Sequence record: NC_024790.1
Strand: one strand, 5' to 3'
From: Escherichia phage vB_EcoP_PhAPEC7
DNA: 64,000 nucleotides
Under the pieces are notes generated by a model. The model worked only from the letters and a program-made list of their open reading frames with translations, made no database searches and was not told where the DNA came from. Position 1 is the first letter of the stretch. Each line of letters begins with the position of its first letter. Both the position numbers and the translations under genes were made by a program. Positions 28,834 to 61,429 of the stretch are shown piece by piece.

Positions 28834-28860
28834 AAAGCCCCTCATTAGAGGGGCTTTTTT
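28834..28860. terminator. Terminator hairpin between convergent gene blocks
   Basis: AGCCCCTC-atta-GAGGGGCT followed by TTTTTT on the plus strand and a weaker T-run on the minus strand; sits between the plus-strand stop at 28825 and the vRNAP stop at 28864. Confidence 0.6.
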
Positions 28861-39282: not shown

Positions 39283-39304
39283 AAAAAGCCCCGTAGGGCT
39301 TTTA
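39283..39304 (-). terminator. Minus-strand rho-independent terminator just upstream of the vRNAP gene
   Basis: On the minus strand: hairpin AGCCC-tacg-GGGCT followed by TTTTTTC; between the upstream stop at 39311 and the vRNAP start at 39234. Confidence 0.5.
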
Positions 39305-44400: not shown

Positions 44401-45243
44401 TTAGTTCAGCCCGTTGTTAGACTTCAGCTTGGTCAGAATGGTATCAATACTTGCATTAGTGAAACCATTAGGTGGGTTCAAGCCTTCATCAATAGTCTTC
44501 TGTGTAATCCATGCATCAGTAAACAGCTTAGATGCTTTAACTTCTGCATCACGTTGGTAAGAAGTAATCTGTTGAGAGTACAACTCTTTCTGCTTACCTA
44601 CGGAACCAGTAACAGTAGCTCCATCGCTTCGGGTATCCAGTGTCTGTGCACGCTGTGCTTCAGTCTGCTCAGTAATCAGTTTAAGCTGTTGAGGTAACAT
44701 CTGGTCAGCGTTAAACAATGCAGCACAGTATGTTTCAGACTCAGTAGCAATCTTCATCTTAGTGAGAGCATATTCACTCTTAGCAGACAGTGCCTGAATC
44801 TTAGCCAGTACAAACTGTGCCTTAGAGGTTGCCAGTTGAACACGTGCAGTAACTGCCTGAATCTGTGCCATAGCAGCAGCCCAGTATGCCTGGTCACGAC
44901 CAAGTAAGAACTGAACAGCATTACTCATGCATGATTCCATCATAGCAATGTATGCTTTGGTGTATTCACCACCGGTAATACGGTTAGCTTTAAACTCAGC
45001 TTTAAGGTGATTGTGTGCAGATTCCATTAATGCATCAAACGTACCACTACCACCTACTTCACGGGTAGTAAGTGATTCATTTGTTACTTTAGTAATAGCA
45101 TCAAAGATTGGGGAATTATCACCACCAGGGATATCCCATTCAGGACCAGACATATCAATGTCAGGGAGGGTAAAGTCATCACCCTTAGTTAACTCTTCTA
45201 GGAGTCGGTTAGCTTCTACCTCAGCAGAACAAGACATAATCAT
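44401..45243 (-). CDS. Hypothetical structural protein
   Basis: 280 aa, coiled-coil-like; synteny. Confidence 0.35.
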
Positions 45244-45313
45244 TCCTCTTGGTTCAAAAAGAAACGGCCCACGGAGTTACCCCAGTGAGCCGTGTTGAAC
45301 TGTAGCTTATACG

Positions 45314-45955
45314 TTAATCGTTCAGGCTACCAGCAGCAATCTGTGCTTGAGCCAGTTGAGCCAATTCTGCTTCAGTCAGCGGAGGCAATACTTCAATGGA
45401 GAACTCGCGTGCTTCTGTTGCACGAATATCCGGTAAGCCATTCTTACCTTTACGAGTCGTAATGTTGATGAACTTACGCTCTTTAAGGAACTCGTAGATA
45501 CAGTACGGAATATGATAACCATTGTCAGTGACTTCACCGAATGGAACAAACTTACGTACAGTACCCATATATTCGTTAGCTACGGTGATAATCTCACCAG
45601 GCAGGTCTTTCTTCTTGGGGTCAAGGTTCTGGATACGTACACGAATCAGTCGAGTCTGTTCTGCACGAATCTTCTGACCCAGAGTCATTTTCTTAACACC
45701 TGCTTCTTGTTTTTCACCCAAAGGATTAACAGCAGCTTCTTTTACTTCTGGTTCATCTTTTGCTTGTGCAGCTTCAATCTTCTCACGAAGTTTCTCAACG
45801 GAGATGTTGTTAGAGAACTTAATATTCATCAATGTTGCACGTTGCTTAAGAACATCAAGTTCGCTAGGCATTGCAATATCGTTAACGGTATCTTCGTTGC
45901 CCTGTACGTCCAGTTCTACGTCAGTGGTCGGTTTATCGTTAATGCTCATGTTCAT
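45314..45955 (-). CDS. Hypothetical structural protein
   Basis: 213-aa ORF immediately upstream (in transcript order) of the capsid gene. Confidence 0.35.
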   Translation of the reverse strand: MNMSINDKPTTDVELDVQGNEDTVNDIAMPSELDVLKQRATLMNIKFSNNISVEKLREKIEAAQAKDEPEVKEAAVNPLGEKQEAGVKKMTLGQKIRAEQTRLIRVRIQNLDPKKKDLPGEIITVANEYMGTVRKFVPFGEVTDNGYHIPYCIYEFLKERKFINITTRKGKNGLPDIRATEAREFSIEVLPPLTEAELAQLAQAQIAAGSLND

Positions 45956-46022
45956 ATTTCCTGTGGTTCAACTAGTTTTATTAAGAGGGGGACTTATGTC
46001 CCCCTTGTTTTATTTAGGACTA

Positions 46023-47225
46023 TTACAGAGGAGCAACAGTCTTAATCAGAGCCAGACGTTCTGGACGTTTAACCAGAATACCGTAGTACCACTTGATGGA
46101 ACTGAAGCCAGTCTCACCATACGGGTCATTACGGTCAGCAGTTTCTCGACCAGGCATCTTAGTCATAATGGAGAACTTAACAGACTTACCATCAGTCTGG
46201 AAGCCAATGGTAGAGAAGGAGTCATCACCAACTACCAGCATCGGGAATACGTCGTAGTGTTCTTGGCCACTAACCATAGAAGAACGGTAACCTGGGTTAG
46301 TAGTAACCTGAGCACCAGCACCTGCCCAATGAAGCATCTCAGGAACCTGGATAATACGGAACTTGTCGATACAACCAATTTCGCCGTTCATCAGAGTACC
46401 AGCATCAGCATAGTGCTGAACCTCAATGAATGCTTTGTTGCCGAACAGGTCTTTCATCGCTTTCAGTTCTGGAACCAGTTCAGAACCAACATACATTACA
46501 CGAGTACCACCAAGTACTTTGGTATCAGTAAGTTTAGAACCAGTGATAATAGTAGTCTGAGTCGGGGTACGGTTCTCAGTAAGAATCTGGTCAAGACGCA
46601 TCAGGTTCTTATAAGAAACTACAGAAGGGGTAGCACCTTCACCAGTGATAGTAGCATCGGAAGTAGCAGCACCTGCATACAGTACAGTACCGGCAGCAGC
46701 CAACAGGTCTTTCTGGAGAACAGCTTCAGTCAACTGTACAGCACCGTTCATCAGTTCACGAGACAGGTGTTCTTTAAGTTGGTCATCAGAATCAAAGTCC
46801 AGAGACTCTTGAGTAAATTCGTAGAAGAAACCGAACTTATGGATGGAACCTTCACGAGACAGACGAGTAAAGCCTACACGGTTAACACGACCACCGTTCT
46901 CTGTCAGCAGAGGCAGTTTAGAGGTGATGTTACCAACGTCTCTGGAAGAACCATACAGGTTACCGTTAACGATGGTAGCACCATTAGCATCAATACCCTG
47001 GTCGTTGATGTTCTTATCGTCGAGCAGTGGAACGTACTCATACACCTTAACAGTCTTACCGTAGTTCTTCGGCATGTTAATGGTGTTAGCCAATGGCATG
47101 AAGTACTGATCTTTACGGGACTGAATAATAGCTTTCTTCAGCCAGTAATAGGTATTCATCTGGTCGGAACCAGCACCATCAATGCTAGATTTCTGACCGT
47201 CAATTGGGGCGTTATAGTTTAACAT
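46023..47225 (-). CDS. Major capsid protein (N4 gp56-like)
   Basis: 400 aa (N4 major capsid protein is about 401 aa) at the expected position between vRNAP-side virion genes and the portal. The overlapping 472-aa plus-strand ORF has antisense-like composition. Confidence 0.7.
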
Positions 47226-47241
47226 ATCATCTTATTCCTGT

Positions 47242-48462
47242 TTAAAGACTACCCGGTACTGGGAGTTTAGCGAAATCTTCATCACTCATAGCTAGTGGGT
47301 TTACAATAGGTGTTGCTTTACGTGTAGCAGCCCGATTAAGGGAAGCTGCTTTAGCTTGCTCGCTGTTAGCCAGAGTCTGCTTAGGTTGTGCTACACGCAC
47401 TACCGGCTGAACTACTGGTTTAACTGCTTGTACCGGTTCAGGCTTAGTCACTCGGTTAAATGCCCCTTGTTGTGCAAGGAGGTTACCGACGTGGTTATAA
47501 GCCTGAATGAACGGAGTACCTACCGGAATCTGGCCTAACATCTGAAGACGGTTCACTTCGTTTGCAATGGTGTCATAAATACCATTCTCACGTTGTTCGT
47601 GAATAGTCTGGAGTAGGCCACGATTCTGGTAAAGAGCATCTTTACTGGCAGCATCCCATGTCGAGCCGATAACACCTAATGTAGCTTGTCCTTCTTGAGT
47701 AGACTTTAAGTCGTCAATTTCGGTTGCAAAATCTGCTTCGGTGTCGGTAACACGGTGATTGCCACCCTGGTAGTTAATTTCCTCATCTGGGTTAAAATCC
47801 AGAGGGTCTGTACCAGAGTCTTTGAGCAACTTCTTAATGGCTTCGGGATTCTTTTTATCCAGGTCAATCAGGAAAGAAAGTTTATCCTCATCCATTAAAC
47901 CGTTGTTCTGTAACATCAGCATTACCTTACGGTAAGGCTTTAGTTCTTGCATCTTACGAGTATAGTTAGCACCCATCTGCATCAGGCTAATGGCCTCCTC
48001 CGGTGAACGGGGAGTAATCACTTTGCCGTTAGCTTTAAAAGGAGCCATCAACTTTTCGTAACTTTCCTTATAGTTGAAGTCAGCAGGCAGACCTTCAGAC
48101 TGTTTGCCTTCTTCTTTCTGTTCCTGGCCTGGTTCAGTAGTAGAAGGTTCAGCTTTAGTAATCGGCTCGCCGTTACTATCAACTTCTGTGTCAACAACTT
48201 TATCATCAACTTTATCAGAAGTTAAAGGATTTGCTGAATCTTCTTCATCTGGTTCGGCTTCAGGGGGGGTTTCTTCGGTTGGTGGGTCTTCAACAGCAGG
48301 GGTGTCAACTTCTTCATCAGGAGTCTGTACGCCGTTGGTTTCTGGGTTGTTCTGAGTGGAAGTGTCTTCCTCAGCAATAATTGCTGGGGCTTCCATATTC
48401 AGAATCTCATCATCCGACATTGCGAGAATGTCGGAAGCTGTGGTTGCAGCTTCCGTAGTCAT
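47242..48462 (-). CDS. Putative scaffolding/assembly protein
   Basis: 406 aa with acidic Pro/Glu-rich N-terminus; between portal and capsid genes. Confidence 0.35.
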   Translation of the reverse strand: MTTEAATTASDILAMSDDEILNMEAPAIIAEEDTSTQNNPETNGVQTPDEEVDTPAVEDPPTEETPPEAEPDEEDSANPLTSDKVDDKVVDTEVDSNGEPITKAEPSTTEPGQEQKEEGKQSEGLPADFNYKESYEKLMAPFKANGKVITPRSPEEAISLMQMGANYTRKMQELKPYRKVMLMLQNNGLMDEDKLSFLIDLDKKNPEAIKKLLKDSGTDPLDFNPDEEINYQGGNHRVTDTEADFATEIDDLKSTQEGQATLGVIGSTWDAASKDALYQNRGLLQTIHEQRENGIYDTIANEVNRLQMLGQIPVGTPFIQAYNHVGNLLAQQGAFNRVTKPEPVQAVKPVVQPVVRVAQPKQTLANSEQAKAASLNRAATRKATPIVNPLAMSDEDFAKLPVPGSL

Positions 48463-52802: not shown

Positions 52803-53059
52803 AGGGGATTTCTCAGGTTAGTTAAGTCAGGATTGACTGAAACAGTCTACATAAAGGATTGTTTGCGGTACAACAAAAACCCACCCCTACAGCCTAGTTG
52901 GCAGGTTGGAACCTGAAACATCGAGTAGCAATTGGGTCAACAGCAGTGAACACCAAAACAGTAAAACCCACATGGAGGCAATGAGCCTACGATGGGTCCC
53001 GATAATTCAATACCCTTCTGATGATAAAACTAGCCCCACTTCGGTGGGGCTAGTTTTAA

Positions 53060-58696: not shown

Positions 58697-60307
58697 TCAC
58701 ACAATGTATGAACGTAGTGGGTTAACACTATCTTCTTCTTCCTCATCCCACATCGGGTCACCCTTGTTATCCACCATAGTCATACCTGCTTGTGGCTTCC
58801 AAGGATTGAGATAACCCAGCATGGAGATAGTATCAATACAGTCATCCTTACCTTTGATTCCATTAATGGTAGCTAGTTTAATCTGGCCCATGAACAGACC
58901 CATAATAGTTGTATCTCTCAGCTCTTCCGGGAAGTACATCTTACCAACTTTGAACCATGGAACTACCAGGTTAAAGCGTGACAGCTTAGAGGTTACAGGA
59001 CGGATGCCCGGCTTACCACCCTCAGAGGATGCAAAGTTAAAGAATACATTACGGTTAATCATTTCTTTCTGAAGAAGGGAGATGAATCCACCTTGCTGTC
59101 CTGTGACCTCGACTCCAACGTTTTGAGGTTGGTATTCTTGAACCAGACGGAATAAGTCGTCAAAGTTTTTATCCATAAGCTGACGATTAGCCACACCATC
59201 AACCCAGAACCAATCTCCATTAGAACTATATGCCCAAACTGATATGACACTGTAGTCACTGGTCTGTTTCTCCGAAGTAGCAAAGTCAGTTGTAATGTAA
59301 TAGTTGTAGCAGGACTTCATCCTTAATAGTTGCTGTCTGCTGTACCATTTAATCTCGCTATCCTGAACAAGACGCTCATCTTCAGAACTAATACGAAGCA
59401 TAAGTTCCTGGTAGAAGCCAGCCAGCTTACCAGTCTTAGCTGCCATATCGTATTGGGCTTTGATGTAGTCGTAAGAGAAACGGTCATCCCATGCACCCTG
59501 AAACTCTTCTTCACTGCATGGGAACTTCTCGCATACAGGCCATACGTTCACATCCCATGCACCAGACTCAACTGCTTCTATAATAATGTCTTCCTTATTA
59601 AAGGGAGTACCATTAAAGATTACTTTACGACGGGTAGGGTCAAGAGCATGGTTCACACCTTTATAGACAGTATCCTTAATAGCTTCCATACTCGTCTTAG
59701 AGTTAGCATCACCATCACTAATCAAGTCATCCAGTACACAGAGCGTCGGACGTTTACCATATATCTTCGTACCACGAAGACCTGTCTTAGCACCAAACAA
59801 CTTAACACCCAGTCGATGTCCTTCTGCATTACGGAACTCTAACAGGTTATCTGTAAAGGTAGCTTCAGGTATCCACTGTTGAAGGAACTCACTGTTTTTA
59901 TATCGGAACTCAATGTTCTTACGTGCAGACTTAGCACCGTTATCCATTGAGTCAGATACGTAAATCATTCCTTCTACTTTCCCCAGACTTGGTAAGTGCC
60001 CAAACACTGCCAAGAACAAAGTAAAGTATTCCATGAACACAGCAGTCTTACCTGCACCACGGAAGCACAGATTAACTACATACTGGTTCGGGCTAATCAT
60101 CTTATCCAACATCTTCAGGTGAACTGGGGGTGTTTTGTTGGATTCACCTTCCTTGCCATTAACCAACTTAATAAAGTTGGCAAAGGTAAGAGCAAACTGA
60201 CTAGGAACATAGTTGGAAGAATTAAGGTGGGAGTAATCCACCTGGTCTAGCCATTCATCCAGTTCCTGCTTAATTAACTCAGACATCTGTAATGTCCTCA
60301 TCTGCAC
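58697..60307 (-). CDS. Terminase large subunit (N4 gp68-like)
   Basis: 536 aa; Walker A-like FRGAGKTA; first large gene of the late block. Confidence 0.65.
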   Translation of the reverse strand: MQMRTLQMSELIKQELDEWLDQVDYSHLNSSNYVPSQFALTFANFIKLVNGKEGESNKTPPVHLKMLDKMISPNQYVVNLCFRGAGKTAVFMEYFTLFLAVFGHLPSLGKVEGMIYVSDSMDNGAKSARKNIEFRYKNSEFLQQWIPEATFTDNLLEFRNAEGHRLGVKLFGAKTGLRGTKIYGKRPTLCVLDDLISDGDANSKTSMEAIKDTVYKGVNHALDPTRRKVIFNGTPFNKEDIIIEAVESGAWDVNVWPVCEKFPCSEEEFQGAWDDRFSYDYIKAQYDMAAKTGKLAGFYQELMLRISSEDERLVQDSEIKWYSRQQLLRMKSCYNYYITTDFATSEKQTSDYSVISVWAYSSNGDWFWVDGVANRQLMDKNFDDLFRLVQEYQPQNVGVEVTGQQGGFISLLQKEMINRNVFFNFASSEGGKPGIRPVTSKLSRFNLVVPWFKVGKMYFPEELRDTTIMGLFMGQIKLATINGIKGKDDCIDTISMLGYLNPWKPQAGMTMVDNKGDPMWDEEEEDSVNPLRSYIV

Positions 60308-60968
60308 GTACTAGTTTAGAACCAGCAATCTCTTTGGTAGGTACACCACTATTGATTGCATTGATTTGCTGTTCAGCTAATGCAGCAAGTGTTGCCTTGA
60401 GGTCAGTCAATCCAGAGTTCTCTCTTAAGTCCAGATTGATATTCGTTACCTGGTCTTTCGGTTTAGCTAAGTGAGTGAGGATAGAGTTAGCTGCATCACA
60501 CCTTACTTTCTCACTTGCTGCTGTATTCATTAGTTCAACCTGTACGTTGATAGCCTTCTGATAATTGTCCTGGTTCACAATCCACACTGGAACCAAACTT
60601 TGTTCCATGATTAGGTTAACTAACTTACCTCTGTGATAAGCAGATACGTAAGCACTAATATCTTTCTCACTGGTTCCTCGTGCTACAAGTTCTGCTTGTC
60701 GGTTGGGGAATGTCTTGAAGTAGGCTTCCTTATTCGAGTAGCCCATGTGTTTGTAAGTTACATACTGAACTGCATTCATGTAGTCCTGTGTCTTAAACTT
60801 ACCTTCCTTCATAACACCAGAGTAAGAGATGAAGTTTTCACGGAATGACTCAGCAACCAGTTGGTCTTGGGTTACGTTGTTAATCGTGTCTACCAACTCT
60901 TGGCTCACACTGTTCTTGAAGTTAGCAGGTAAGGCATTAATGATCTGCTGCTTAGTTAGCTCACTCAT
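60279..60968 (-). CDS. Hypothetical protein (N4 gp69-like; possible small terminase subunit)
   Basis: 229-aa ORF upstream of and overlapping the large terminase start. Confidence 0.3.
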   Translation of the reverse strand: MSELTKQQIINALPANFKNSVSQELVDTINNVTQDQLVAESFRENFISYSGVMKEGKFKTQDYMNAVQYVTYKHMGYSNKEAYFKTFPNRQAELVARGTSEKDISAYVSAYHRGKLVNLIMEQSLVPVWIVNQDNYQKAINVQVELMNTAASEKVRCDAANSILTHLAKPKDQVTNINLDLRENSGLTDLKATLAALAEQQINAINSGVPTKEIAGSKLVRADEDITDV

Positions 60969-61111
60969 ACTTATCTCTCTACAAAGTTATGTCTATTAAC
61001 GAAGATTCTTTTCTTGGGGTGAGATACCCCTTGAAGAAACCATACCATACAGTTACACTTTAGTCATGATATAGAAAAAGTTCATGATACTAAATAGTAT
61101 GTAATGTTCCG

Positions 61112-61429
61112 ATGACCCTATTCCCCAAGGAGTACCCCTTGAGAATCTTTATGAGAAGTCCCTCATATGAAGACAACTACTCTGAGCTAGACCACACCAA
61201 GGCTGGCTTCCTGAAGGGTGATATCATTGTCACCCATGACTGGGATACGTTCCATGAGTTATCTGGAATAATGCTATTAGAGAACCGTCCCGGTGTTACC
61301 ATCTTAGAACCACAAGAAACTTACTCTTTAGAAAGATCTATTTCATCTCTTGTGTTCTTCACAAAATTACCTCATAGTGTCTCCATCAAACGAAGCAACG
61401 ATAGCGTTCGGATGACGGTGACGATGTGA
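61112..61429 (+). CDS. Small early-region protein, paralog family member
   Basis: Shares the family motif (..IIVTHDWDTFHELSGIMLL..). Confidence 0.4.
   Translation: MTLFPKEYPLRIFMRSPSYEDNYSELDHTKAGFLKGDIIVTHDWDTFHELSGIMLLENRPGVTILEPQETYSLERSISSLVFFTKLPHSVSIKRSNDSVRMTVTM

Follow-up and report, generated by a model that had tools for sequence, protein, structure and literature searches.

Bacteriophage T7 carries an incomplete terminator, T-phi, straight after its capsid gene 10. Hairpins located between cistrons are also known to stabilize mRNA, as do the REP sequence in malE-malF and the hairpin of the puf operon, and protection of the 3' end is an established mechanism in other operons, namely malEFG (REP), puf and pap. 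The late genes of phage N4 are transcribed by the host RNA polymerase. The use of inefficient terminators by T7 was cited in a study of the N4-like Pseudomonas phage LUZ7, in which more than 60% of the termination sites were found to be weak and the operons to be shaped by stepwise read-through; in LUZ7 and LIT1 the late genes are traversed in antisense direction by middle transcripts, and about 20% of the LUZ7 3' ends are antisense to genes (PMC9163698). One LUZ7 terminator, T56, was mapped by ONT-cappable-seq to position 59943 on the minus strand, with an average efficiency of 65% (PMC10204088, Table 1), and its published sequence opens with the last capsid codons, ...KTVARL* (PMC10204088). 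Since the LUZ7 record places the capsid gene at 59978-61171 and a gp55-like gene at 59280-59918, both on the minus strand, T56 lies in the gap between capsid and gp55, the same gap that is described here. The LUZ7 hairpin core GGGGAGGGAAACCUCCCC is found at 59966-59949 and is followed by a U6 tract at 59948-59943, thus the mapped 3' end of T56 is the last U of that tract. No transcript map of an E. coli N4-like phage was found in the literature searched.

The capsid locus and its neighboring genes

The window, by which the whole 64,000-nucleotide stretch of DNA is meant, shares 97% identity with the Escherichia phages vB_EcoP_G7C, F22 and E20 over the 2 kb around the hairpin described below. 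On this sequence identity the window phage is a Gamaleyavirus of the Enquatrovirinae, Schitoviridae, a G7C-like member of the N4 family. Plus-strand genes occupy positions 1-28825, and the late structural block spans about 60968 to 28864 of the minus strand, with the gene for the 3456-aa virion RNA polymerase as its last. The gene for the major capsid protein (400 aa), a homologue of N4 gp56, was located on the minus strand at 46023..47225 from the list of open reading frames and the translation; it matches PHROG 1357, "major head protein" (E = 2.7e-151), as well as Pfam Phage_capsid_4, and its DNA is 97% identical to that of G7C, where it is annotated as gp56, as it also is in N4. The capsid stop codon TAA (46023-46025) is followed by an in-frame TAG (46020-46022), both on the minus strand. 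Next on the same strand, at 45314..45955, is a homologue of gp55 according to the list of open reading frames and the G7C annotation; its function is unknown, PHROG 2130 being likewise a family of unknown function. The capsid stop and the gp55 ATG bound a gap of 67 nt (45956-46022), in which UGAACCACAGGAAAU (45956..45970, minus strand) constitutes the gp55 translation-initiation region, with a Shine-Dalgarno AGGA at 45959-45962. Past gp55 the gene order is gp54 (the tail tube in N4), gp53 (the plug), the ejection proteins and the virion RNA polymerase. The G7C record carries no annotation of a hairpin after the capsid gene.

The interval from the hairpin to the gp55 start is too short for a promoter, and a consensus promoter scan of the minus strand from 45986 to 40964 found no sigma-70-like site; therefore gp55 to gp53, downstream of the hairpin, probably depend on read-through. 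N4-type late promoters bear a poor resemblance to the sigma-70 consensus, and a promoter of such a poorly matching kind might precede gp55 and have escaped recognition. Sigma-70-like matches were strongly depleted in the region 28000-52000, with 3 found versus 21.2 +/- 4.0 expected in one scan and 10 versus 32.9 +/- 5.7 in a second.

A stable hairpin follows the capsid stop codon

Positions 45986-46005 of the plus strand are AGGGGGAC TTAT GTCCCCCT, a perfect 8-bp stem with six G-C pairs and a 4-nt loop, and the sense RNA made from the minus strand over the same interval (45986..46005) is predicted to fold as AGGGGGAC-AUAA-GUCCCCCU. In its sense-strand context, UAA UAG UCCUAAAUAAAACA AGGGGGAC AUAA GUCCCCCU CUUAAUAAAACUAGUUGAACCACAGGAAAU AUG, the stem begins 17 nt past the capsid stop codon TAA on the same strand. 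Folding of the minus-strand RNA in a 39-nt context gave -16.0 kcal/mol with z = -4.1, and 0 of 200 shuffles folded equally well; the hairpin makes up 76% of the ensemble and is thermodynamically dominant, while in a 101-nt context the hairpin region retained a z of -3.3. When hairpins were defined as perfect stems of at least 8 bp with at least six G-C pairs, the window was found to hold six of them versus 0.19 +/- 0.42 in 200 dinucleotide shuffles, and five of the six are intergenic. The stability of the hairpin far beyond chance, and its reality as a feature, are confirmed. The initial annotation had described a GC hairpin in the 67-nt gap after the capsid stop, followed on the minus strand by a weak U-tract only, and both statements are borne out, the first by sequence, fold and shuffle test and the second by the tail CUUAAUAAAAC with three U in its first 8 nt.

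Long-range and competing structures were also considered. The minimum-energy fold contains a UCCU:AGGA helix that would hide the gp55 Shine-Dalgarno sequence; it was rejected because the UCCU is mutated in L025, L027, L067 and L085, four relatives that keep all else. An inspection of the flanking sequence by eye for a competing anti-terminator pairing revealed no other run of G5 or C5. Two plus-strand open reading frames, 45804-47222 (472 aa) and 45512-46045 (177 aa), span the hairpin antisense to the capsid gene; neither has an N4 counterpart spanning the gap, and both were set aside as most likely shadow reading frames of codon usage.

Flanking tracts on the two strands

On the sense strand the stem-loop falls within the range of an intrinsic terminator (GC-rich stem of 5-14 bp, loop of 3-8 nt), and the 3' tail CUUAAUAAAAC (45975..45985, minus strand) is a degenerate U-tract in which three of the 8 nt directly 3' of the stem are U, where an intrinsic terminator has at least five. 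The tail received a weighted T score of 1.98, and the terminator scan did not call the minus strand at the hairpin site; the call was made on the plus strand only. There the hairpin is followed by UGUUUUAUUUA (46006..46016, plus strand), a canonical U-tract for antisense transcripts, which as read on the sense strand is the A-tract AAAUAAAACA located 5' of the hairpin. The antisense arrangement is that of a terminator, GAGGGGGACUUAUGUCCCCCUU and then GUUUUAUUUA, with a weighted T score of 3.68. Neither this canonical plus-strand tract nor the second sense terminator, located 700 nt downstream after gp55, had been mentioned in the initial annotation.

The tail score is a distance-weighted count of T and serves for relative comparison only; its weighting scheme reportedly goes back to d'Aubenton-Carafa in 1990. 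Sense and antisense scores were 1.98 and 3.68 for the window, 2.56 and 0.89 for N4, and 4.32 and 0.94 for LUZ7. Among the 76 distinct relatives described below, a sense score of at least 3 was reached in only 21, and an antisense score of at least 3 in 11, nine of which are G7C-type sequences, the other two being unrelated loci; all nine Gamaleyavirus-type sequences scored have the antisense value of 3.68. The pattern suggests that in the G7C clade the sense tract and a GNRA loop have decayed and the A-tract has been retained, so that the element may terminate weakly in the sense direction, may mostly stabilize, or may also stop antisense transcripts.

Further hairpins are present in the late region at 28834-28857, 39284-39303 and 53025-53058, each flanked on the sense strand by a 5' A-tract of the AAUAAAA type and by a 3' U-tract. 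All three look bidirectional, and two of them (28834-28857 and 39284-39303) were called on both strands. Among the strong late-region hairpins, a U-tract solely on the antisense side is peculiar to the one after the capsid gene.

Conservation across the Schitoviridae

The capsid regions of 22 annotated Schitoviridae in GenBank, from at least 15 genera and from hosts that include E. coli, Vibrio, Pseudomonas, Rhizobium and Dinoroseobacter, were combined with 73 IMG/VR loci to give 76 distinct post-capsid sequences. The gap between capsid and gp55 was 53-115 nt in 22 of the 22 annotated genomes, and folding it produced a dominant GC hairpin in every one, whereas the gap between gp57 and capsid measured only about 10-35 nt and that between gp55 and gp54 shrinks to 2-11 nt in many genera. 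A stable hairpin of -12 to -33 kcal/mol was found 0-37 nt from the capsid stop in all 76 distinct sequences, and the window hairpin, in the same gap and within about 40 nt of the stop, occupies the position seen in the relatives. The best hairpin energy in 90 nt separated post-capsid sequences from controls at the level of the medians (-18.8 versus -12.3 kcal/mol, P = 4e-23), but 25% of the control windows in coding sequence reach -15.3 kcal/mol; this measure was dropped owing to its poor discrimination, and the requirement became a perfect stem within 90 nt that has 7 bp or more and five or more G-C pairs. Such a stem was present in 59 of 76 relatives, compared with 9 of 916 control windows within the capsid coding sequence.

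The stem sequences diverge widely, with 38 distinct 5' arms among the relatives, and therefore structure rather than sequence has been kept. The sense-strand 5' arm is G-rich in the hairpins of 54 of 57 relatives, and the window hairpin has the same polarity, its G-rich 5' arm being AGGGGGAC and its C-rich 3' arm GUCCCCCU. Tetraloops of the GNRA or UNCG type were found in 31 of 57 on the sense strand versus 1 of 57 when read antisense (about 5% would be expected by chance); the sequences are interrelated, so a binomial P-value overstates their independence, and the direction of the effect is unambiguous. Based on the G-rich 5' arm and on these RNA-stabilizing loops, the element acts as a sense-strand RNA across the sampled relatives. 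The window loop AUAA itself is neither GNRA nor UNCG, and GUAA is found in the sibling L026. An alignment of 18 cross-genus hairpins by MAFFT and RNAalifold failed to match stem with stem and its consensus had no meaning, so that each sequence was folded separately, and conservation was also judged from close relatives that can be aligned. By position, fold and arm polarity, the window hairpin is the Gamaleyavirus copy of a stem-loop that every Schitoviridae relative examined carries downstream of its capsid gene. It is a real and conserved element, ordinary in function.

A motif was noticed in a part of the collection. In many soil- and plant-associated relatives, among IMG/VR loci L041-L066 and L092-L094 and GenBank records L005, L007 and L009, the arms or flanks carry GAACCAAGG / CCUUGGUUC, and the 5' copy is sometimes retained without its 3' partner. 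This motif could reflect shared descent or could have a role of its own.

Variation within the G7C clade

In nine G7C-type sequences both arms of the stem are unchanged and all four loop positions vary, the variants being AUAA, UAGU, GUAA, UAAU and UUAU. In the more distant L084, with 93% capsid identity, GGGGGAC/GUCCCCC is replaced by GGGGGAGC/GCUCCCCC with pairing kept, a compensatory change of AC/GT to AGC/GCT. An invariant stem, a variable loop and the change in L084 make up the pattern that would be expected of selection on the stem. The loop is a hotspot, at 45994-45997 in the window and likewise in L001, L023-L027, L067 and L085, where five variants occur in nine gaps that are otherwise nearly identical. 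The loop ATAA of the window is the exact reverse complement of TTAT in L085; reverse-complement loops would fit an inversion by template switching across the palindrome, and single-base steps also suffice.

Other elements nearby

The gap between gp55 and gp54 contains a second, canonical sense terminator (45255..45293, minus strand), recognized by folding 45244-45313. Its bulged, 13-pair GC hairpin ACGGCUCACUGGGGUAACUCCGUGGGCCGU (45264-45293) is followed by UUCUUUUU (45255-45263), and it was missed by the consensus scan because of the bulge. As judged by gap length, a terminator at this place would belong to some genera only, the gap being 2-11 nt in many others.

At the start of the gp57 coding sequence (48413-48455, minus strand), two overlapping perfect hairpins begin 7 nt past the start codon, one of 9 bp (CGGAAGCUG/CAGCUUCCG) and one of 8 bp (UCCGACAU/AUGUCGGA), both within the first 50 nt or so of coding sequence. 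The record of phage AL25 has a "terminator" annotated at the equivalent place, and the hairpins could be a translation or stability signal for gp57.

The heptamer TGAACCA (reverse complement TGGTTCA) occurs in 66 copies in the window versus 11.5 +/- 3.4 in dinucleotide shuffles, and it stands directly before the ribosome-binding sites of gp55 and gp54 (45964-45970 and 45250-45256, minus strand). One copy adjoins the post-capsid hairpin; for the core hexamer GAACCA, the excess falls to only about 1.4-fold under a higher-order model. The copies sit in codon frames that avoid an in-frame TGA stop, and the excess is probably driven by codons.

A model for the post-capsid hairpin

We propose, with a probability of roughly 0.65, that the element is a leaky terminator, a hairpin protecting the 3' end, or both, and that it raises capsid mRNA over the mRNA of the downstream genes. 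What was observed here is a hairpin at a fixed place, conserved across the sampled relatives and marked by RNA features of the sense strand, while termination has been demonstrated for the LUZ7 counterpart only; that the window phage terminates or stabilizes transcripts at the hairpin, and to what extent, is inferred. According to the model, the late polymerase would move leftward on the minus strand and cross the capsid stop, upon which the nascent RNA would fold into the 8-bp GC hairpin 17 nt beyond. The position of the hairpin corresponds approximately to the edge of the footprint of a terminating ribosome, by our own estimate of the footprint size. A fraction of the polymerases would terminate at the hairpin, inefficiently because the sense U-tract is only UCUUAAU, and transcripts that end at the hairpin or are trimmed to it would be shielded from 3' exonucleases. 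Capsid mRNA would consequently accumulate above the mRNAs for gp55, the tail tube gp54, the plug gp53, the ejection proteins and the virion RNA polymerase. The remaining polymerases would read through into gp55, which would be the first gene dependent on read-through, and read-through would be reduced again at the canonical terminator after gp55. The hairpins at 39284-39303 and 28834-28857 sit before and after the polymerase gene, and together with those after capsid and after gp55 they might form an attenuator staircase matching the copy numbers of the proteins in the virion, where gp54 of the tail tube is present in 12 copies and the virion RNA polymerase in about 4 (PMC13434306).

The initial annotation had offered a partial terminator or mRNA stabilizer that raises the capsid transcript; this suggestion gained from the comparative evidence, from LUZ7 T56 and from the low copy number of the downstream products, and it lost on the sense U-tract, which falls short of that of an intrinsic terminator. 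Several observations speak against the model: the sense score of 1.98 is below that of the 21 of 76 relatives with a clear tract, AUAA is not a stabilizing tetraloop, and the better U-tract faces antisense. Should the model be right, the hairpin would be a case of routine gene-dosage control in a phage, which needs hundreds of capsid subunits versus a handful of tail and ejection proteins per virion. It would mark a transcript boundary useful for annotating G7C-like therapeutic phages, a practical value that is modest, and constructs for E. coli could draw on it as a candidate part that is short and possibly bidirectional. For the relatives sampled, the universal hairpin, its sense polarity, its GNRA/UUCG loops and its variable U-tract add to the knowledge of N4-like late transcription.

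Alternative explanations

That the hairpin never terminates and is purely an intercistronic stability element appears somewhat improbable. The polycistronic late mRNA would be cleaved within the AU-rich sequence that lies 3' of the hairpin, or its decay would start downstream; 3' exonucleases would be blocked at the hairpin, and only the capsid segment would persist. A single-stranded AU-rich segment, CUUAAUAAAACUAGUU, does lie directly after the stem, the hairpin dominates its ensemble (76%), and it is the hairpin that is conserved while the U-tract is degenerate here and strong in the sense direction in only 21 of 76 relatives; on the other hand, the LUZ7 counterpart behaves as an intrinsic terminator whose RNA stops where U6 ends, and N4, L084 and many relatives retain a recognizable U-tract. 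It is unlikely that the element of this clade mainly terminates antisense transcription or works both ways, such that plus-strand transcripts, whether from the phage middle polymerase or from the host enzyme, stop at the hairpin followed by UUGUUUUAUUUA and antisense RNA over the capsid gene is limited. A hairpin plus a U-tract is found only in the plus orientation, and the excess of the antisense over the sense score (3.68 versus 1.98) is a reversal confined to Gamaleyavirus sequences, two unrelated loci apart; the other strong late-region hairpins (28834-28857, 39284-39303 and 53025-53058) have A- and U-tracts on both sides, and antisense middle transcripts through late genes are documented in LUZ7 and LIT1, as are the roughly 20% of LUZ7 3' ends that are antisense (PMC9163698). 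Yet no plus-strand gene ends at the hairpin, the plus-strand reading frames that span the site are not conserved in N4, and the nearby sequence contains no consensus plus-strand promoter, just weak 9-of-12 matches in numbers below chance. A transcript of the middle operon must first pass the strong terminators at 28834 and 39284, and A-rich sequence on the 5' side is frequent at terminators that work one way only, as it is in AT-rich spacers, while conservation across relatives, arm polarity and the GNRA/UUCG loops all indicate the sense strand.

It is quite unlikely, in our estimate, that the hairpin descends from one ancient RNA element, homologous throughout the family, which serves a conserved purpose other than canonical termination and was re-used antisense in the G7C clade. 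Its conserved job could be to provide a defined end for processing or stability, or a site for a phage factor, and in the G7C clade the hairpin may further have been converted to antisense termination, halting middle-phase transcripts before the capsid gene. The arm polarity and often the exact sequence are kept, as in the 18-nt core common to N4 and LUZ7, yet most members are without a good U-tract, which would suit such a history. Finally, it is highly implausible that the element works at the level of DNA, whether by binding a protein at the palindrome, by extruding a cruciform or by serving the virion RNA polymerase as an N4-type hairpin promoter. The arms do form a perfect DNA palindrome. 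Stems of N4-type hairpin promoters have 5-7 bp. Virion polymerases of the N4 family use DNA hairpin promoters, and those listed for KP8 combine a 5-bp stem and a 3-nt loop with a conserved motif further downstream, which ends in TGGA or TGGG, and are located upstream of early genes (PMC6950046, Table 1). The window stem has 8 bp, its loop has 4 nt, no TGGA/TGGG-type motif is present and the next gene is late; with stem, loop, motif and gene position all differing, a hairpin promoter for the virion polymerase was rejected. Moreover, from one genus to another the sequence is wholly different; what persists is the structure, the polarity of the arms and tetraloops of the RNA type, and such a pattern does not fit a sequence-specific DNA site.

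Comparison with known systems

The leaky terminator or 3'-end protector proposed here resembles LUZ7 T56 in its place between capsid and a gp55-like gene, its G-rich 5' arm, its GC stem of 7-8 bp and its tetraloop. T56 is likewise partial (about 65%), so that its downstream structural genes are reached by read-through. The two differ in that T56 has a GAAA loop and a U6 tract, whereas the window hairpin combines the loop AUAA with the tail CUUAAUAAAAC, and its A-tract reads as a canonical U-tract on the other strand. The record of the Enquatrovirus AL25 places a "terminator" 19-38 nt past the capsid stop and another in the gap between gp55 and gp54, both being predictions only; the window, like AL25, has hairpins at both gaps. 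The core GGGGAGGGAAACCTCCCC and tail UUACUUUAU of N4 and AL25 are directed to the sense strand (2.56 versus 0.89 antisense), and the tracts of the window are reversed. The hairpin cores of N4 (L002) and LUZ7 (L022) are identical over 18 nt, GGGGAGGGAAACCTCCCC, while their capsid proteins are 57% identical, their hosts differ and the flanks of their hairpins are unrelated.

A search of Rfam 15 with both strands of 45200-46800 returned chance-level matches only, the best overlap with the hairpin being ROSE_3, at 15 bits versus a threshold of 43 bits and with E = 5.5. To T-phi of T7 the likeness is one of arrangement, a hairpin terminator after the capsid gene that lets a fraction of the polymerases pass into tail genes of lower copy number. 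T-phi differs in its long stem and clear U-run and is unrelated in sequence and lineage; it acts on T7 RNA polymerase, while the late polymerase of the window phage is presumably the host enzyme, as in N4. With REP and puf the hairpin shares a stable stem-loop without a good U-tract, placed between a strong upstream cistron and weak downstream cistrons. REP sequences, however, are dispersed repeat families, whereas the window hairpin is a single-copy element at a fixed position, inherited with the phage capsid module.
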